Positions 12,577-20,072 of a DNA stretch of 51,534 nt are shown in pieces. This DNA is from an uncultured Candidatus Saccharibacteria bacterium (GTDB taxonomy: Bacteria; Patescibacteriota; Saccharimonadia; Saccharimonadales; JAGQMS01). The position numbers and the translations under genes were made by a program. Each line of letters begins with the position of its first letter. Position 1 is the stretch's first letter. Below the pieces are notes generated by a model that did not search any database, was not told where the DNA came from, and saw only the letters and a list, made by a program, of their open reading frames with translations. The stretch covers positions 75,363 through 126,896 of the forward strand of contig CAZKOX010000001.1 in assembly GCA_964554485.1 (NCBI GenBank). The letters are read 5' to 3'.

Positions 12577-12657
12577 GGGTCGACATTTTTAAGCGTACGA
12601 AGTAAAATAGCAAGCGTCGTTTATCCGAGTAGAAGAATCATTTACAATCAAAGATAT

Positions 12658-12796
12658 GCGCGGGTGGCGAAATGTGAAGAGTGCCGGTGGCACTATGCAA
12701 GACCGGAGCCCTGGATTGCGAATGCAACCAAGGCGAGGTGGGGGCGCGACCGATTTGGTGGCTAGCCACCAAGTAGAATCGTGCCAGACGCACTAG
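12658..12796 (+). pseudogene. 5' fragment of tRNA-Leu interrupted in the D-loop by a 111-nt structured element (copy 1)
   Basis: 12658-12674 equals the first 17 nt of the tRNA and 12786-12796 (AGACGCACTAG) equals tRNA nt 20-30; the intervening 12675-12785 replaces GT. Confidence 0.85.
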
Positions 12797-12856
12797 TAAA
12801 AAGAAATAGCGGCTGAAGTTGACGGGTGAGTAGGTATAATTAACAATCAAGAATAT

Positions 12857-12940
12857 GCGCGGGTGGCGAAATGGTAGACGCACTAGCCTTAGGAGCTAGC
12901 GAGGCAACTCATGGAGGTTCAAGTCCTCTCCCGCGCACCA
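12857..12940 (+). tRNA. tRNA-Leu(TAG)
   Basis: Acceptor GCGCGGG/CCCGCGC; D-loop GG; anticodon arm CTAGC-CTTAGGA-GCTAG; long variable arm; T-arm GGAGG-TTCAAGT-CCTCT; encoded CCA. Confidence 0.98.
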
Positions 12941-12949
12941 AAACAATAT

Positions 12950-12978
12950 GCCGACCCTTGTGGTCGGCTTGTTGCTTT
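12950..12978 (+). terminator. Intrinsic terminator after tRNA-Leu
   Basis: GCCGACC-CTTGT-GGTCGGC followed by TTGTTGCTTT. Confidence 0.7.
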
Positions 12979-12986
12979 GTAGCCGC

Positions 12987-13113
12987 AGGACTTGAACCGT
13001 AGGTGAGATGAGCCGGTGGCTCATCGCAAGGCAGCTTTTCAGATTCAAAGCTATGTTTTGAGTTTGAAAAGTGCGGGGGCGCAGAATGTGCCCAAGTCCT
13101 CTCCCGCGCACCA
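12987..13113 (+). mobile_element. Structured tRNA-associated element (copy 2) ending in a 21-nt duplication of the tRNA 3' end
   Basis: 13093-13113 equals tRNA 12920-12940; 12987-12998 is antisense to the tRNA T-arm; three internal hairpins; motifs shared with copy 1. Confidence 0.75.
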
Positions 13114-13182
13114 ACCAGTCGACTTTTAAAACCAAGTCATTATTGACTAGGGTATGTGTAAGATGAGATATAATTGCACATA

Positions 13183-13665
13183 ATGATACGCCGCACTACT
13201 GCCAGGCCTAAGATAGGCTCAGTGGCGGATAGCGCTGAGCCTGGTAGCACAGACCTTAGCCCAGTCACTGACCTTGACTCCTTCCGGAGACGAGGCCTAG
13301 AGCCGCAGTATCCACCGGATGAGCTGCTTGAGTCGGTTAAGCCAGCTACAGCATGGATGACCTACTTCGTTATAGAGCTACCGACTGCATCTGCCATCCA
13401 CCCAGCACTCTACGATTGTGTCGAAGAACTTCTCGTCGGGCGCCGTCCAGTACTTGATTGCCAGACAGAATCACTTCGTGTTGCTTGCTGGCTAGAGTCC
13501 GAGACACAGGCGACGGCCAATGAGGAGGCCTACGCGGTTGGTCAAGCAGTTGTTGATCTTCTCGGATTATCGCCGGCCTCGATAGTCGAACACGTTCATC
13601 GCTTCTGGACTCGCGCCGACGGAATGATCGACGAAGAGCTGCCGGTTTTGATTCCGTCACTCTGA
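13183..13665 (+). CDS. Hypothetical protein, high GC, probably horizontally acquired
   Basis: ORF 13174-13665 with first ATG at 13183; about 60% GC in two hand-counted 60-nt lines, visibly above the flanking core genes. Confidence 0.6.
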   Translation: MIRRTTARPKIGSVADSAEPGSTDLSPVTDLDSFRRRGLEPQYPPDELLESVKPATAWMTYFVIELPTASAIHPALYDCVEELLVGRRPVLDCQTESLRVACWLESETQATANEEAYAVGQAVVDLLGLSPASIVEHVHRFWTRADGMIDEELPVLIPSL

Positions 13666-13891
13666 CTATTCGCGAACACCCACGGCAATAGAGACAACGG
13701 CAGCCATCAGACGACCATATTAGACTAGGATGGTCAGGTAGCTGCCAACGGCGAGAAGTAGTAAAATATCTTCGGCTGGGTCAGTGGTTGTTCAGACGCT
13801 GATCAAATGAACCGGAGAGAGGCCGGGCACCCAGCCGCCTTGTAAGATGACAGGAGTAAGGTATATAGGCTTGACCTTAATAAACCCATAC

Positions 13892-14338
13892 CTATAGACC
13901 CAAAGGATGAAGAAGAATTGCGCCAACCTTGATTGCCAGATCCTGACGAGCAAGGGCGTGAAGTATTCCACTTTCCATGTCGGACACGGTCAAGCCATGA
14001 ACATCCGTCAATTCTTCTACGGTCTGATCATATGTAGCTTGATAATCTGGTGATGAGAAAACATAAAGGGCACTCAAATCATGGGCGATCCGGCATCCAC
14101 GAACCCATGTGGCCAGATTTGGGCCAACAGATTCGGGGTCTGAGACATAAAGAAAGCCGGTAGCATCCTGTATGTCGGTCCCTGGGAAATCAAACCCTCT
14201 TTCTAGCAGATGTTCAAGAATGGGTTTGCCTTCACCCGCAGCAATCTTGTCGTACAGAAATTGTGTACAACCGCGCGGATTGTGTCGTTGGAATGATGCT
14301 TCGAATTTGCTCCGGGTAATTACAGCCATCAGTGTCAT
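13892..14338 (-). CDS. Hypothetical protein
   Basis: 148-aa ORF with plausible globular composition, divergent from the WhiB-like gene. Confidence 0.6.
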   Translation of the reverse strand: MTLMAVITRSKFEASFQRHNPRGCTQFLYDKIAAGEGKPILEHLLERGFDFPGTDIQDATGFLYVSDPESVGPNLATWVRGCRIAHDLSALYVFSSPDYQATYDQTVEELTDVHGLTVSDMESGILHALARQDLAIKVGAILLHPLGL

Positions 14339-14500
14339 TATAAATTGCTTACCCTCGTTTTATGTGTTGTGGAATGCTCTACGACTGTCTAGAGCGGGGT
14401 TATCATTGGCTTGACTGTTAATAAACCACTAAGAGACCCCACTTGCCCTTGTAAACCTATGAACATGTTTTATTTCGTTAACATATATAATATGAATATT

Positions 14501-14806
14501 ATGAGCTTAGATAGTCAGCCTGATGGCTTAGGAAATAACTGGTGGGCAAATTGGGCGGCCTGCGAGCAGCCTGGTTATGTAATTGATGAAAACTTCATTG
14601 TTTCTCCAGAAGATATACTAAGATCACCAATTGATACATATCGTAGACGGAAAGCTGCAAGAGAAATATGTAATTTGTGCCCGTTTTTTGAGGAATGTGA
14701 ACAAAATGCCAAAAGTTTTAAGGGTGAAGAACATGGTCAATACGGCAGAATATACGCCGGTAGGATATCAGTTTTACTACCCTTGGTCGGTGTTGTGCGG
14801 CTTTAG
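14501..14806 (+). CDS. WhiB-like (Wbl) Fe-S transcription regulator
   Basis: W-A-A-C21-x35-C57-x2-C60-x5-C66 plus GRIYAG turn (canonical G[VI]WGG); likely start ATG 14501 within ORF 14411-14806. Confidence 0.7.
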   Translation: MSLDSQPDGLGNNWWANWAACEQPGYVIDENFIVSPEDILRSPIDTYRRRKAAREICNLCPFFEECEQNAKSFKGEEHGQYGRIYAGRISVLLPLVGVVRL

Positions 14807-14840
14807 ATACTTATAAAGAATCATAGGTTCAACTCTAACA

Positions 14841-14868
14841 TTGACAATACTGTTAAAGCTTATATAAT
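14841..14868 (+). promoter_or_regulatory. sigma70 promoter of the His leader / original hisS
   Basis: TTGACA-16nt-TATAAT. Confidence 0.75.
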
Positions 14869-14878
14869 ACTAAGCGTA

Positions 14879-14932
14879 ATGACAACTAATATCACCAGTC
14901 ATACACATCTGTCGCTCCGGTTGATCGGTTAA
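14879..14932 (+). CDS. Putative attenuator leader peptide MTTNITSHTHLSLRLIG
   Basis: 17-codon ORF right after the promoter, with His codons at positions 8 and 10, ending in the antiterminator arm. Confidence 0.6.
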   Translation: MTTNITSHTHLSLRLIG

Positions 14933-14953
14933 CTTTCGATTTATTCATATCTT

Positions 14954-14983
14954 AACGCTCCGATCTACGGAGCGTTTTTCTTT
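14954..14983 (+). terminator. Attenuator terminator
   Basis: AACGCTCCG-ATCTA-CGGAGCGTT followed by TTTCTTT. Confidence 0.85.
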
Positions 14984-15013
14984 ACAAAACAAACTAAATT
15001 ACTAAGGATGAGA

Positions 15014-15125
15014 TAAAATGAAAGCAAATATGTCACAAATTACACAAAGCTACAAAGGAACAAGAGATTTTTACCCCGAAGATAAACGCCTCCAGAAATG
15101 GATGTTTGGCGTAATGCGGTCGGCT
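15014..15125 (+). repeat. 112-bp perfect direct repeat of the hisS 5' end (left copy)
   Basis: Base-by-base identical to 18737-18848. Confidence 0.95.
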
Positions 15126-15158
15126 TGTTGTTTTGTAGCCGCAGGACTTGAACCGTAG
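15018..15158 (+). pseudogene. Truncated hisS fragment (36 HisS codons plus 10 element-derived codons)
   Basis: Same start as hisS; frame runs into element copy 3 and stops at TAG 15156-15158. Confidence 0.85.
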
Positions 15159-15177
15159 GTGAGAAGAGCCGGCGGCT
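15118..15177 (+). repeat. Partial copy 3 of the tRNA terminator arm plus structured element
   Basis: 57/60 nt identical to 12962-13021. Confidence 0.92.
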
Positions 15178-15251
15178 TACTAATGTATAGAATGTAGAAA
15201 AAATGCTAAAATTATCGTAAGAACTATGAGTTCAGATCATTTTGGGGTGAC

Positions 15252-18200
15252 ATGCAACAAAAAGTTATAAAAGCGATAAAAAACAAACTATTTCATTTGG
15301 CATTATTTGGTGCGCTACTGCTATTGGTACTGCTTAGCATTAATAATAAATCTGTGCATGCTACAACCTATAGGGACACTATCCTTGCCGAGCCTACGCT
15401 ACTGAACTATTGGCCGATGGATGAGGCTTCTGGTGCTACAAGCCTAAGTCCGGCAGCAGGTGGTACGGTAATTAATCTTACAGGGGCTACGGTAGGTTTA
15501 AGTGGTCAAGTCGACGGAACGGCAGTCTCGTTTAATGGCACAACAAACTTCGGTGTGACCGCATCAAATCTTGACTATACTTCGTACAGTAAACTTGTCG
15601 TTGAAGCACTAATCTTTGTTAGCAGTTACGATAACTCAATACGTATAACTTGGGAACTAAGTCCCTCGGCACTTTCTAATCAAGGAGCATTTTATTTTGC
15701 CCAGGATGTAGGCGGAACTAACAGCCCAACACTTAAGGGTGACGGGGGGTTTAATAACGCAGAATATACTAGACCATCTGCTGGGCAATGGCATCTTTTT
15801 ACGATGGTATACGACACAAGCCCTGGCTCCAATGAAGTAGAAGCATATATTGACGGCGACCTGCAGACTCCTACGAGTAGGCCATTTAACGTAAATAACA
15901 CAAATAACTTTGGAAACTTTGCCTTGTACTTAATGTCGCGAGGCGGTGGAAGTTTTTTTAGCGCTGGCAAGATGCAACACCTGGCAATATATAGTGACCT
16001 GAGTAGTAGCCAGATTGCATTGCATGCTCAAGCAGCGGGTTTGCGCGAACTTCTTCCTGGTACGCTTTCAGAAAGTTCTCGAACCACTACAAGTGCTACG
16101 GTCAGTTGGACTAGCGCAAGCAATGTGTTTAATCCACCTATTATCGCTCAACTACAGCGATCTGCCCATGGTGCGAACAGTTGGTCGAACGTTTCTGGTG
16201 CAACAAGTAGTCCGGCAGTAGACACAGGCTTGAGTGTAGATACAAGCTACGATTATCGAGTTGCTTATACGGACGCTACTGCAACAACTGTGTATTCAAA
16301 TACGCTCGTAGTTACGACCATGAAAGTCTATCCACCGTATACAGCAAATTCTGACACCGTAATTGTTGGTCCGTATGATACAGCCAGATCTGGTGCTGGC
16401 AATTGGAGCCCCGGAGCTGCCGGTTCTGTCCAGTGGCTTGTAGATGGTCATCAATATCGGGTCAGACAATCAGGAACAATCAATCGGCTTAGAATATATA
16501 CACCAAATAATACGAATCTCACTGGATTTTATCTACAAATATGGAGAAAAAATGGTACTACATACGATTTGGTCGGCCAAAGCAACAATATCGCTAGTAG
16601 TTTAGCAAATGCCAGCTTCTCAACTGTAGATTTATTAACCCCAATTTCGGGAGTTCAGATTGGCGATTTTTATGGGGCGCGTATGGAAACATCAGGTTCT
16701 GCTGCAAGTTTTTATGCATATAACCCTGGTAGCGTGGTTAGTAAATTTATCGTAAACCAAACTGCTTCGTTGACAGGGATGGATTGGGCAGCCCAATTTT
16801 CTTCAGCAACTGTCGTACCGATTGAAATGTATATGAGTCCTGCGCCACAAGTAGTGTTTATTGGTGACTCAATTTTCCAGGGCGTTCCTGGTAATTATAG
16901 TTTTTTGGATCCGACTGATACTACAAATTTAGCATCTTCGATCGAGGGTCAGTTTAGTGGTATAACGGGATATACCTATCAGAACATGGGTAAGGGAAGT
17001 GATACAACTGCGATTATAACCTCACGTTTTACCAATGACGTTATAAATTTGCACCCCAGAATCGTTGTTATGGAAGGTGGCGTGAATGATATATATGGTG
17101 GTGCGGTCACAAAGGCGCAATTTTTGGCTAACTGGACTACAAATCTTGCCGCCGCTCAAGCCAGCAGCAGCATTTCGAAAATATTGGTTTTAAAAATTTT
17201 GCCCTGGACTAATGGCACGAATGTACAGAATCAAACGAGAGATGATTGGAACGCTGCTTTAGAAACACTAGTTGCAAACTACTCTAAAGCTACAGTGGTG
17301 GACGCAAGCACATATGTAGGCCAATTTAGATCTGGGGGTGACGTAGGGAATCTATGGGATATACAAACAGCATTTAGCGCCGATGGCGTTCATTTTAACC
17401 AAACCGGACATGGCCAGATTGCTCAGGCGCTAGTGGATTCCATCGATACTACGATACCAACCATTACTAATATCTCTTCTAATAAGGTTAATGGTTATTA
17501 CAAAACAGGGGAAGTCATAGATATTGATATTACTTTTTCTGAAGCCGTAAGCTCGACTGGCGACGTGACAGTAACATTAGAAACTGGAGCAACCGACCGG
17601 ACTTGTACATTTACTGTCACTAGCAGCACAACCGGTACCTGCAACTATACTGTTCAAGCCGGGGATGCGTCAGATGACCTCACAGTTAGCTTAATTTCTG
17701 GTACTATCGCCGACGAAGTTGAAAACTCTATGTCCGTCTTTAGCCCTGTGACAAATCTTGCGGCGAATAAGACATTGATTATTGATACGAGAGCGCCAAC
17801 GATATCAGCCGTTACGCTAATATCATCCCCGACAAGTGATGTCACTCCAAGTTACGCCTTTACGACTGACGAGACTGGCACTGTCGGTTATGGCGGCGCT
17901 TGCAGCTCAACAACTACAACCGCGCTTGCTGGGGTTAACATCGTTACTTTTATATCATTAGCCGATGGAACATATACCAATTGTACGATTACAATTACCG
18001 ACACAGCTACAAATGTATCTAATACGCTAGCAGTAGCCAGCTTTACTATCGATACCTCTACGCCTGCATCAACATCAGCGCCTGCTCCTGTGACTGCAAC
18101 TTCTTCGACAATCGATGATATCCCTGAACCAGAAGTTGAGCAGGTAAGATATAACACAGTCACTTTCGCTAACTCTAGTAACGGTGCCGCTATCCAGCTT

Positions 18201-18686
18201 GAAACCCCTGAAGGCACTACAATAACTTGTTCTGCCTCAGTAGCTGAGAGTACGCTAAGTAACCAAGATTCTGAACATAGTTACCCCGTGGGACTAGTCG
18301 ACTTCTGCCTTACTGTACCTATCGGATCAACTAACACTATAAAACTAACATTTGTAACTAATCTTGCCCTAGATGACGTAATGGCGTTTAAATTCAGCAA
18401 CGAAGTCGGCACATATACAGAAGTGCGGAATGCAACTATTACAGAAACAATGTTAGGTAATCAGCGTGCCTTGTTGGTTGCTTACCAGGTAACAGATGGC
18501 GGCGAACTAGACGGCGACAGTACTGTAAACGGGACAATTCTTGATCCAATTGGGTTGGCTGCTTCTAATGATCCAGAGTCCAGTATCAGTACAACGACTC
18601 CACCGTATTTGTTGATTACGCTTAGCATAATTGGAGTTAGTGGGTTACTTATATTTATAGCAGCTAACATTAGGGCTAGGCGCTAG
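15252..18686 (+). CDS. Large surface protein: signal peptide, LamG/ConA-like, FN3, SGNH hydrolase, Ig-like repeats, choice-of-anchor-U-like domain, C-terminal TM
   Basis: Signal ending VHA; LLNYWPMDE..WHLFTMVYD..YIDG (LamG); FIGDSI, GGVND and DGVH (SGNH blocks); DGGELDGDSTVNGTILDP; hydrophobic tail plus RARR. Confidence 0.8.
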   Translation: MQQKVIKAIKNKLFHLALFGALLLLVLLSINNKSVHATTYRDTILAEPTLLNYWPMDEASGATSLSPAAGGTVINLTGATVGLSGQVDGTAVSFNGTTNFGVTASNLDYTSYSKLVVEALIFVSSYDNSIRITWELSPSALSNQGAFYFAQDVGGTNSPTLKGDGGFNNAEYTRPSAGQWHLFTMVYDTSPGSNEVEAYIDGDLQTPTSRPFNVNNTNNFGNFALYLMSRGGGSFFSAGKMQHLAIYSDLSSSQIALHAQAAGLRELLPGTLSESSRTTTSATVSWTSASNVFNPPIIAQLQRSAHGANSWSNVSGATSSPAVDTGLSVDTSYDYRVAYTDATATTVYSNTLVVTTMKVYPPYTANSDTVIVGPYDTARSGAGNWSPGAAGSVQWLVDGHQYRVRQSGTINRLRIYTPNNTNLTGFYLQIWRKNGTTYDLVGQSNNIASSLANASFSTVDLLTPISGVQIGDFYGARMETSGSAASFYAYNPGSVVSKFIVNQTASLTGMDWAAQFSSATVVPIEMYMSPAPQVVFIGDSIFQGVPGNYSFLDPTDTTNLASSIEGQFSGITGYTYQNMGKGSDTTAIITSRFTNDVINLHPRIVVMEGGVNDIYGGAVTKAQFLANWTTNLAAAQASSSISKILVLKILPWTNGTNVQNQTRDDWNAALETLVANYSKATVVDASTYVGQFRSGGDVGNLWDIQTAFSADGVHFNQTGHGQIAQALVDSIDTTIPTITNISSNKVNGYYKTGEVIDIDITFSEAVSSTGDVTVTLETGATDRTCTFTVTSSTTGTCNYTVQAGDASDDLTVSLISGTIADEVENSMSVFSPVTNLAANKTLIIDTRAPTISAVTLISSPTSDVTPSYAFTTDETGTVGYGGACSSTTTTALAGVNIVTFISLADGTYTNCTITITDTATNVSNTLAVASFTIDTSTPASTSAPAPVTATSSTIDDIPEPEVEQVRYNTVTFANSSNGAAIQLETPEGTTITCSASVAESTLSNQDSEHSYPVGLVDFCLTVPIGSTNTIKLTFVTNLALDDVMAFKFSNEVGTYTEVRNATITETMLGNQRALLVAYQVTDGGELDGDSTVNGTILDPIGLAASNDPESSISTTTPPYLLITLSIIGVSGLLIFIAANIRARR

Positions 18687-18736
18687 CTTAACCAGAAACT
18701 ACTATGCAAACCAGCTATAAATTACTAAATATGCAG

Positions 18737-18848
18737 TAAAATGAAAGCAAATATGTCACAAATTACACAAAGCTACAAAGGAACAAGAGATTTTTACCCC
18801 GAAGATAAACGCCTCCAGAAATGGATGTTTGGCGTAATGCGGTCGGCT
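18737..18848 (+). repeat. 112-bp direct repeat (right copy, start of intact hisS)
   Basis: Identical to 15014-15125. Confidence 0.95.
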
Positions 18849-20072
18849 GTTGAGAGATTTGGCTACGAAGAATATGATGCACCGGTATTGGAAAGCACTG
18901 AGCTTTTCAAAATGAAAGGTAGCGAAGAAATTATTGACGACCAAACCTATACCTTTGAAGATCGTGGTGGCCGTAGTGTTACGCTTCGCACCGAAATGAC
19001 CCCGAGCGTTAGTCGAATGGTAGCTGCCAAACGTCAAGAGCTGGCGTATCCGCTGCGTTGGTATTCAATTCCGAACCTGTGGCGCTATGAAAGACCGCAG
19101 CGTGGACGACTTCGCGAATTCTGGCAACTAAACGTTGATATTTTTGGTGTTGAAGGACTAGAAGCTGAATTTGAAGTTATTCAAGTGGCGGATTCGATCA
19201 TGCAAGCATTTAATGCAAAGCGCGCCAGCTACACAATCAAACTTAATAGCCGAGTATTTGTTGATGAATTATTAACGAAATACATCGGTCTTGACGGTGT
19301 AGAAGTAAACACTATTCGCAGATTAATTGATAAAAAAGACAAACTTGAGCAGACGGAATTTGCGGCCGGCGTCGATGCAGCCATGAATCCTACGCAGCGT
19401 GAAAGCGGTGCATCCGATAAGCTTTTAGCAGTTTTAGGTGCTAAGTCGGTTGCTGAATTGCCAGAGGATCTAAGAAATGTCGCAAGTCTTCAAAAACTAA
19501 CTAAACTACTCGGTCAGTTAAGAGATTCTGGAATCACCAATGTTGAGTTTGACGTGAGTTTAATGCGTGGGTTTGACTATTACACCGATATTGTTTTTGA
19601 AGTATTTGACGAAAACCCTGAAAATAATCGTTCGATGTTTGGCGGTGGTCGTTATGACGGCCTAGTTGGTCTGTTCGGTGTGGAACCTGTGCCGACGGTT
19701 GGTTTTGGAATGGGAGATGTGACTCTTGAGAACTTCTTGAGAGATAACGACCTAATACCAAAGCTAAAAACCGAAACTGAACTGTATATTGCACTAATCG
19801 GTGATGTGTTTGTCGATGCACAAAAACTAATTACAAAGCTTCGTGACGAGGGAGTAAGCGTTGCAGTTGATGTCACAGACCGAAAACTCGGTAAACAGAT
19901 AGAAACAGCCGTAAAAAAAGGCATTCAGTATCTGTTGGTAATTGGCGAAGAAGAGCTGAAAACCGAGAAGTTTAAGTTGAAAGATCTACAAACTGGCAAC
20001 GAGGATGAGCGCTCTCTAGAACGAATCGTTTCAATTGTGCGCGCTAGAGGTGACAAATCTTTAATTGATTGA
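18741..20072 (+). CDS. hisS: Histidine--tRNA ligase
   Basis: KGTRDF, LRTEMT, RYERPQRGRLREFWQ, RGFDYYT, GGGRYD, anticodon-binding domain. Confidence 0.97.
   Translation: MKANMSQITQSYKGTRDFYPEDKRLQKWMFGVMRSAVERFGYEEYDAPVLESTELFKMKGSEEIIDDQTYTFEDRGGRSVTLRTEMTPSVSRMVAAKRQELAYPLRWYSIPNLWRYERPQRGRLREFWQLNVDIFGVEGLEAEFEVIQVADSIMQAFNAKRASYTIKLNSRVFVDELLTKYIGLDGVEVNTIRRLIDKKDKLEQTEFAAGVDAAMNPTQRESGASDKLLAVLGAKSVAELPEDLRNVASLQKLTKLLGQLRDSGITNVEFDVSLMRGFDYYTDIVFEVFDENPENNRSMFGGGRYDGLVGLFGVEPVPTVGFGMGDVTLENFLRDNDLIPKLKTETELYIALIGDVFVDAQKLITKLRDEGVSVAVDVTDRKLGKQIETAVKKGIQYLLVIGEEELKTEKFKLKDLQTGNEDERSLERIVSIVRARGDKSLID

Follow-up and report, generated by a model that had tools for sequence, protein, structure and literature searches.

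We consider the interval between a leucine tRNA gene and hisS in an uncultured Candidatus Saccharibacteria bacterium (assembly GCA_964554485.1, contig CAZKOX010000001.1), where a copy of the 5' end of hisS, joined to a piece of the tRNA-Leu terminator region, stands in front of a large surface-protein gene (Y) and an intact hisS. The window, by which we mean the whole stretch of 51,534 nucleotides that was analysed, lies on a contig of 127 kb; the genome amounts to 660 kb in 23 contigs and is rated 97% complete and 0.3% contaminated, and relatives of its proteins are found in Patescibacteria/Saccharibacteria. From the left, the ORF, tRNA and Pfam calls give recG, a PLC-like gene, rsmD, a 5' fragment of tRNA-Leu with a 110-nt insert, and tRNA-Leu(TAG) with its terminator. 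The middle is occupied by a 129-nt structured element, by island X with its three small ORFs, one of them a WhiB-like gene, and by a promoter, leader ORF and terminator. A hisS stub, the 1144-aa surface gene Y, the intact hisS and tig follow on the right. The flank order recG-PLC-rsmD-tRNA-Leu ... hisS is also found in G002, the genome of a different species of the same genus, which has equal flanks and unrelated ORFs between them. In what follows, X with a number denotes a public sequencing run, L with a number a contig, and G with a number the genome of a relative. The features on which the argument depends are these:

12857 to 12940, + strand: tRNA-Leu(TAG), the left anchor of the variable interval (ARAGORN; Rfam tRNA, 58.6 bits; synteny in G002)
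12950 to 12968, no strand assigned: bidirectional terminator hairpin of tRNA-Leu (terminator scan, both strands)
12959 to 13021, + strand: D2-left, the terminator 3' arm and the first third of the RNA element linked to tRNA-Leu (59/63 against 15115-15177)
14841 to 14983, + strand: ancestral hisS control region ("left context"), with a sigma-70 promoter, a short leader ORF and a terminator
15014 to 15125, + strand: R-left, a copy of the hisS 5' end with 4 nt of untranslated region (UTR) and codons 1-36 (identical to 18737-18848)
15014 to 15039, + strand: 26-nt stretch that would hold the homologous crossover between island X-side DNA and the unit (contig L080 equals the window up to 15039 and differs from 15040; the two copies differ upstream of 15014)
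15018 to 15158, + strand: chimeric 46-aa ORF of 36 hisS codons and 10 codons from the D2 fragment (translation; ATG of the hisS stub at 15018)
15115 to 15177, + strand: D2-right, the truncated element copy (59/63 against 12959-13021)
15118 to 15125, + strand: microhomology GGTCGGCT (joint compared with hisS and with the tRNA trailer); the joint J is 15125/15126
15126 to 18848, + strand: the 3723-bp unit, made of the D2 fragment, Y, a 54-nt spacer and 112 nt of the hisS 5' end
15252 to 18686, + strand: surface protein gene Y, 1144 aa, with a GDSL lipase/esterase domain (Pfam Lipase_GDSL_2, 2.9e-17, residues 536-720)
18687 to 18736, + strand: UTR' ("right context"), a diverged proximal upstream region of hisS that has neither attenuator nor Shine-Dalgarno (SD) sequence (alignments)
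18737 to 18848, + strand: R-right, the beginning of the intact hisS (identical to R-left)
18741 to 20072, + strand: intact hisS, 443 aa (Pfam tRNA-synt_His, 1.7e-45, and HGTP_anticodon)

The two copies of the repeat R, 15014-15125 and 18737-18848, agree at 112/112 positions. This perfect duplication was already reported in a preliminary description of this DNA, and its other direct observations stand as well: the hisS fragment does switch to the tRNA-Leu terminator arm and the start of the element (59/63, i.e. 57/60 when counted from 12962), and the 1144-aa gene (15252-18686) is followed by an intact hisS of 443 aa (18741-20072). The identity of the copies is more than conservation, because other hisS alleles of the population differ from R at 7 and 10 positions; at an allelic divergence of 6-9%, the probability of finding 0/112 differences is at most 1e-3. 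Directly upstream, 14995-15013 and 18718-18736 are related and carry 5 clustered mismatches in 19 nt. Of the 8 UTR positions that adjoin the copies 5 differ, and the clustered mismatches delete the SD-like AAGGATGAG from the right copy.

At the joint the two partners share the microhomology GGTCGGCT, 8 nt exact as the lower figure of the preliminary description had it and 10/11 when the flanks are counted, with TG in front of it on both sides and GTTG after a 1-nt slip. It is provided by the 3' arm of the terminator, GGTCGGC(T), and the chance of an 8-nt exact overlap at a given joint is about 1.5e-5. To the right of the joint, D2-right matches 12959-13021 with E = 7.8e-22 in a search of the whole 660-kb genome and differs from D2-left at 15117, 15131, 15164 and 15172. 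It retains just the 5' strand of the closing stem of the element and the 5' arm and loop of hairpin 1. The chimeric ORF that runs across the joint is called identically on three ENA contigs.

The unit that lies between the joint and the end of R-right consists of one gene and about 180 nt of non-coding DNA. Its ORFs and Pfam domains include neither a recombinase or transposase nor a replication gene, and sequence comparison of its ends (15126 and 18736) shows no inverted repeat. With a single gene and about 180 nt of non-coding DNA the unit is unlikely to be a free plasmid, a possibility that we discard. The Y protein has an N-terminal hydrophobic segment (signal or anchor) and a C-terminal hydrophobic tail that ends in RARR, and the gene has an SD of its own (GGGGTG). 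Its nearest homologue, 63% identical, is found among multidomain proteins of Patescibacteria/Saccharibacteria. No full-length homologue of Y occurs in 40 relatives and the 63% homologue sits in an unrelated island, for which reason the synteny of relatives cannot reveal the donor arrangement. A scan of JGI metagenome contigs for the Y protein gives relatives of 48-57% identity, in contexts that are uninformative.

Does the joint exist outside this one assembly? The population data are assembler contigs, from Logan (k=31) and from ENA MEGAHIT assemblies (k141, where MEGAHIT reuses contigs of lower k). Run X7 equals X6, and X25 and X26 probably equal X24 and X14 (study P3 re-files runs of P4), and these are not counted as independent. 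Contigs cross 15125/15126 in at least 14 runs from at least 7 studies (X1-X6, X8-X12, X14, X18 and X20), which are wastewater, activated-sludge, aquatic and sediment samples, and the joint is found in three ENA MEGAHIT k141 contigs as well (L051-L053). Reads are the source of every 31-mer in a contig, and with an overlap of just 8 nt at the joint, a contig that crosses it is evidence that such a joint is present in DNA. The preliminary description had taken a lack of reads across the 15125 junction as the sign of a misassembly; 31-mers that span it are present in at least 14 runs and in three k141 assemblies.

What precedes the joint in the three k141 contigs is the end of the unit itself. L051 reads 18584..18848 and then 15126..18500, L052 reads 16721..18848 and then 15126..16631, and L053 reads 17783..18848 and then 15126..15344. 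All three run from the end of Y through the spacer, R and the joint into the start of Y at about 100% identity to the window, and two of them make a near-full turn of the unit. The same path is seen in the k=31 data, where contigs of X10 and X11 pass from 18736 to 15014, i.e. go back by 3723, as does the path in X9, and where a contig of X8 covers 15096-18848, which is 3753 nt or 3723 plus the 30-nt overlap of k-1. SRR30303806 yields a contig identical to this one of 3753 nt. The branch from R to the joint is kept and that from R to hisS is lost in 13/16 data sets; R running into hisS is seen only in X4, X18 and X24. The k-mer depth of the contigs is raised in the unit: 10.7 against 3.4-5.0 in the flanks for X8 (a ratio of about 2.5), 10.1 against 4.6-6.8 for X11 (about 1.9), and 8.5-9.5 against 4.8-7.9 for X2 (about 1.4). 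In X11 the joint contig has a depth of 7.2 against 2.9 for the edge from the tRNA to D2, and therefore a second strain with Y straight after the tRNA is unlikely to be the source of the excess. On the assembler contigs and k-mer depths, then, the unit is joined end to start and is present in more than one copy per chromosome in some samples.

We turn to the arrangements in which the locus occurs. The preliminary description had proposed a search for an empty site, and such sites exist in two forms. In one of them, haplotype H0 (L073-L075), rsmD and all that follows up to the 3' end of the tRNA (12941) match the window at 100% identity, and 5 nt further on the contigs enter the hisS promoter at 14840. 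The hisS behind this promoter is intact and 90-95% identical, and terminator, element, island X and Y are all missing. Since these contigs go from 12941 over 5 nt to 14840, the segment 12942-14839 (terminator, element and island X) is accessory; since their left flank is 100% identical and their hisS just 90-95%, the locus is a mosaic made by recombination. The other empty form, HX (L080), combines the WhiB-like gene with the leader region and a complete hisS, and neither the joint nor Y is present. Over 14459-15039 (581 nt) L080 is without a mismatch to the window; 10/86 positions then differ in 15040-15125, and deeper in hisS the identity is 83%. The allele of L073 has 7 differences from R, 5 of them in a state that L080 shares. 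A third haplotype, HY, apparently occurs in X24, where one contig runs from the tRNA-Leu 3' end and terminator to 15118-15267, Y is covered, and a 1002-nt contig (17920-18921) passes through R into hisS. No island X, left context or joint is seen among the X24 contigs. Runs X35-X37 contain the flank from hisS to tig and few words of Y. The interval from tRNA-Leu(TAG) to hisS is thus a hot spot of recombination, with several haplotypes in wastewater and sludge populations.

As an observation on hisS itself, the alleles that stand behind identical upstream DNA differ by 5% to 17% in DNA (18741-19200 against L080 and L073) and are nearly constant in protein, with 3-4 differences in the first 60 residues. 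Allelic depth of this kind is unusual for an essential gene in one population.

We take the joint to be the place where the unit's own two ends are joined, as a tandem-duplication or circle junction, followed by a crossover to the island X side, and give this reading a probability of roughly 0.55. The starting point would be an HY haplotype with Y between a truncated tRNA-Leu trailer (D2) and hisS. Illegitimate recombination at the 8-nt GGTCGGCT would join codon 36 of the HY hisS to the 3' arm of HY's own tRNA-Leu terminator, and the 3723-bp unit (D2, Y, spacer and hisS 5' end) would thereby stand head to tail, in a tandem-duplication join or the equivalent in an excised circle. RecA-type recombination over the unit or over the 112-bp R could then shift the copy number to 0, 1, 2 or more, and homologous recombination could also move the unit between strains that share its flanks. 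The window genome would have one unit left between two R copies, and the different left-hand haplotype, with element, island X and hisS attenuator, would have been attached afterwards by a homologous crossover in 15014-15039. The order of these events, the part of RecA, and the tandem rather than circular topology are what we infer from the arrangement of the sequences.

What speaks for this reading is the allele found at the joint. L080 and L073 share 5 states that R does not have, which assigns R-left to the hisS allele linked to the surface gene; their alleles differ from R, yet nothing separates R-left from R-right, and on the simplest reading J has HY-type sequence on either side. R-left would thus carry a Y-linked allele, unlike the attenuator-linked L080 and L073, a pattern that gene conversion or an unseen allele could mimic. 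The self-joining of the unit and the later crossover would also explain both the head-to-tail contigs and the abrupt change from diverged to identical sequence at 15014. The process is known in kind, namely a duplication join point followed by homologous recombination; here it is met in natural populations of the candidate phyla radiation (CPR) with empty, single-insert and multi-copy forms.

Several points weigh on the other side. Gene conversion between the R copies would equally give 112/112, and an attenuator-linked hisS allele identical to that of the window would rescue a recipient-by-donor model. In X24, the contig read as HY is a k=31 path whose D2 is hybrid, with C at 15131; instead of being the parent of the composite form, it may have arisen from that form by a deletion, with recombination between the two D2 copies. 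A second strain that shares the unit and has diverged flanks could stand behind part of the depth excess. Neither the Logan nor the MEGAHIT contigs prove a single molecule that crosses the 112-nt repeat or the 32-nt D2 core, and since both R (112 nt) and the identical 32-nt D2 core exceed k, the k=31 graph fits several genomes. At a depth of 3-10x, pruning of weaker branches can yield false paths, and no k141 contig has the left context before the joint.

How else could the arrangement have come about? In the preliminary description a donor allele, with the order tRNA-Leu terminator, partial element, Y and hisS, was joined by homologous recombination in hisS at one end and a microhomology of 8-13 nt at the other. 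Spelled out, a linear donor fragment would have entered a recipient with island X, attenuator and hisS, the microhomology would have linked it to codon 36 of the recipient's hisS, and extra copies would have come later by unequal crossing-over at R. The joint and its microhomology are real, the microhomology has a typical length, comEC and recA are in the genome, window-type R follows the left context in several strains, and an arrangement of the donor type is seen in X24, albeit as a k=31 path with a hybrid D2 that may be a deletion derivative. This account predicts the allele of the recipient in R-left, however, and the attenuator-linked L080 and L073 differ from R at 10 and 7 of the 112 positions while R-left equals R-right. 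The 10/86 mismatches of L080 place the crossover at 15014-15039 and not further down hisS, the UTRs directly upstream differ at 5/8 positions, and a separate step would be required for the head-to-tail contigs and the depth excess. We hold entry of a linear donor to be improbable. We are also doubtful that the unit is a recombinase-free, self-joined circle or amplicon which maintains itself in CPR populations in nature, passes from strain to strain and moves between two homologies at which it can dock, one in the tRNA-Leu trailer and one in the hisS 5' end. If it were, the locus would be a copy-number switch for a giant surface lipase, with an integrated Y and hisS under the hisS leader and attenuator. 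Far less probable still is site-specific capture, in which the element would act as an attC- or att-like site and the Y unit would be a cassette inserted by a recombinase. The element fragment at the left end of the unit, the wide spread of the element family at tRNA-Leu genes, and a Y homologue beside serine recombinases in another CPR genome are all in keeping with it. Against these stand a unit and a window without a recombinase (the one Xer-like tyrosine recombinase of the genome sits on another contig) and a joint that lies in a terminator arm and inside hisS rather than at a site defined by the element, with no inverted ends. The suggestion of element-mediated cassette capture therefore finds no support, the break at 13021 being not recurrent and no recombinase being near. 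Position 13021 had itself been a candidate for a recurrent recombination site, as many BLAST matches end at 13020/21; we reject it, for those copies continue with a covarying hairpin arm.

There was also a concern, raised in the preliminary description, whether the window is an assembly chimera of two strains. For the joint as such it is answered, since the joint recurs across runs and studies; as to the one integrated copy, a chimera is unlikely. Under such an explanation the order island X, hisS stub, J, Y and hisS would be an assembler path through a mixed graph and would exist in no cell. The real molecules would be a unit-free chromosome (island X, attenuator, R and hisS) together with free 3723-bp circles, or an HX strain together with an HY strain that has a tandem array. 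Several genomes could account for every edge of the k=31 graph, all three k141 joint contigs have the end of the unit and not the left context before R, and the depth of the unit exceeds that of the chromosome. One contig of X18 pairs the joint with the full element, to be explained by a false path by way of the 32-nt core or else by the reciprocal arrangement. Set against this are contigs that run from the left context through R and across the joint: in X20 a contig of read length (151 nt, depth 2) covers 15012-15162 with no mismatch, reaching from left-specific bases through the whole of R to 37 nt beyond the joint, and in X6 a contig covers 14944-15472. Left-context contigs end at 15043, with 0 mismatches in X1, X2 and X4 and 2 mismatches (necessarily upstream of R) in X3, X5 and X15, and therefore real 31-mers join the left-specific 15012-13 to the window-type T at 15040. 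A stable free circle is disfavoured by the lack of a replication gene in the unit, and the window comes from a 127-kb contig of the nearly complete and nearly uncontaminated genome given above. We judge it unlikely that the integrated order is only a path through the graph. In X3 the flanks are about 2% diverged and there are yet 0 mismatches in the unit, the joint and hisS up to 19321, a pattern that fits a block transferred along with the chromosomal hisS.

Among known systems, tandem duplication and amplification come closest. In bacteria such amplifications have junctions with microhomology or no homology and an unstable, heterogeneous copy number (PMC11721125, PMC1428787), and a review of the S. 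aureus sdrM case places one end of the amplification inside an rRNA-tRNA cluster (PMC11721125). As in E. coli lac (PMC1428787) and S. aureus sdrM (PMC11721125), the unit at our locus has a few kb, and a homology of a few bases connects its downstream with its upstream end; the copy number is variable and depends on the population, the unit can be lost by recombination between repeats, and, as in sdrM, one end adjoins a tRNA gene. The head-to-tail joint (in assembler contigs), the short identity and a copy number above that of the flanks (where strain mixtures may contribute) are all found. Unlike lac and sdrM, the populations here are uncultured CPR bacteria under no known selection, the downstream end lies in the 5' end of an essential gene and each unit carries a 36-codon hisS stub, and a later recombination has linked the array or unit, whose tandem topology is putative, to another left-hand haplotype.

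Homology-facilitated illegitimate recombination (HFIR) in natural transformation (de Vries & Wackernagel 2002, as cited in PMC8116780) resembles the locus in that one homologous anchor and one microhomology joint can add foreign DNA. The competence genes and the RecA on which DNA uptake and recombination would depend are encoded in the same genome (ComEC, 150.4 bits; RecA, 467.7 bits). HFIR, however, predicts no head-to-tail copies, and the allele pattern places one haplotype on both sides of the joint; its hisS side has another allele than the one that accompanies the recipient-type upstream region, which leans against HFIR. The locus is like a Campbell-type integration of a circle in that the unit lies between direct repeats of a shared segment (R), and excision would give an end-to-start joint and an empty site; it is unlike one in having no replicon, integrase or att site, the shared segment being 112 nt of hisS. 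With the island hot spots linked to tRNA genes it shares a variable cargo directly 3' of the tRNA that differs among close strains (H0, HX, HY, the composite form and G002), but there is no integrase here and the borders of the Y unit are not the tRNA 3' end. The unit, moreover, holds one gene, and its repeats are hisS 5' ends and not tRNA sequence, which sets it apart from an integrase-borne tRNA island. Nor is it an integron cassette by its features, for the window has no integrase, and it is in a terminator arm and within hisS that the unit has its borders. No transposase domain (Pfam) and no inverted ends at 15126/18736 are found, and an insertion-sequence origin is disfavoured because a duplication of 112 nt far exceeds any target-site duplication.

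When the unit is integrated, the stub ORF, Y and hisS would lie in this order behind the strong leader promoter at 14841, and the intact hisS would have lost its leader and the SD-like sequence. The locus offers a natural example, in an uncultured ultra-small bacterium, of how accessory surface genes can be acquired, multiplied and lost with no help from mobile-element machinery; all that is needed is a single microhomology joint together with ordinary homologous recombination at the 5' end of an essential gene and at a tRNA trailer. Should the surface lipase act in host contact, episymbionts would have a simple way to become phenotypically heterogeneous, through the varying copy number of its gene. 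For genome-resolved metagenomics there is a caution as well, since the linear path masks at least 4 co-existing haplotypes and a unit that is present at more than one copy.

Two observations on Y may be added. The GC content of the gene equals that of the genome. The nearest homologue has 1357 aa and lies in the CPR genome GCA_964409615.1 (L081, 12459-23428) beside two serine recombinase genes and a ThsB-TIR gene, which suggests that surface lipase genes like Y are a common cargo of mobile or defence islands.

The remaining features of the interval lie between the tRNA-Leu gene and the hisS control region:

12986 to 13114, + strand: the full structured RNA element 3' of tRNA-Leu (order-wide matches; RNAalifold)
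13115 to 14839, no strand assigned to the whole: island X, with ORF163, ORF148 (- strand) and the WhiB-like gene at 14459-14806 (ORFs, Pfam)

Island X has a GC content of 0.50-0.55 in its left part (12900-14100, the ORF163 region) against about 0.42 in the surrounding genome. It varies among strains, the whole of 12942-14839 being missing in L073-L075, and it is not seen among the contigs of X24 or X6. Exact look-ups of hisS, the trigger factor, ORF163 and the TTG-start WhiB ORF give no match, and that of ORF148 gives just one 1-kb contig. In the strains of X3, X5 and X15, other sequence replaces everything to the left of 14878. In the control region behind the island, the promoter (TTGACA-16-TATAAT) scores 12/12 against the consensus and the terminator is at 14954-14976. 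The region is kept upstream of hisS in G002 (L026, 8230-8397) and in the insert-free haplotype. The leader ORF has 17 codons (MTTNITSHTHLSLRLIG), and its counterpart in G002 ends in IHTHLLLRLIG. In the H0 leader the second His codon is an Asn codon (HTN), and a simple reading of the leader as a His-codon attenuator is therefore weakened.

The structured element has three hairpins. Its 5' start is the antisense of the tRNA T-arm (GGACTTGAACC) and its 3' end copies the 3' end of the local tRNA-Leu, here as a 22-nt copy at 13093-13114. Matches to the element occur in 203/301 genomes of the order, many of them just the 22-nt match to the tRNA 3' end; full-length copies stand directly 3' of tRNA-Leu in G001, G172, G099 and G130. 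RNAalifold on 8 copies gives 42 consensus pairs, 23 of them with compensatory changes, and an invariant G-U in this consensus favours the + strand. No Rfam family matches the element or the hisS leader. The element accompanies tRNA-Leu of the anticodons TAG and GAG in many genomes of the order, and further copies are found at L046 1494-1635 and in L047, L048-L050 and L055-L072. It is dispensable here, since the H0 haplotype of the same species is without it.

A partial second tRNA-Leu lies at 12637-12796, made of a 21-nt upstream flank with tRNA bases 1-17, a 110-nt insert that is related to the element, and 11 nt from the D-arm; a similar partial-copy structure is found upstream of tRNA-Leu(TAG) in G001. 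The strain of X3 lacks this partial copy and joins 12611 to 12857 with 16 other letters. In the same strain the tRNA-like 3' end of the element (13114/13115) is followed by AACAACTAAAAGACCTTTTATGGGTCGTTC, a second trailer-plus-terminator that resembles that of tRNA-Leu(GAG) in G001, and trailer/terminator modules of this kind may be arrayed.

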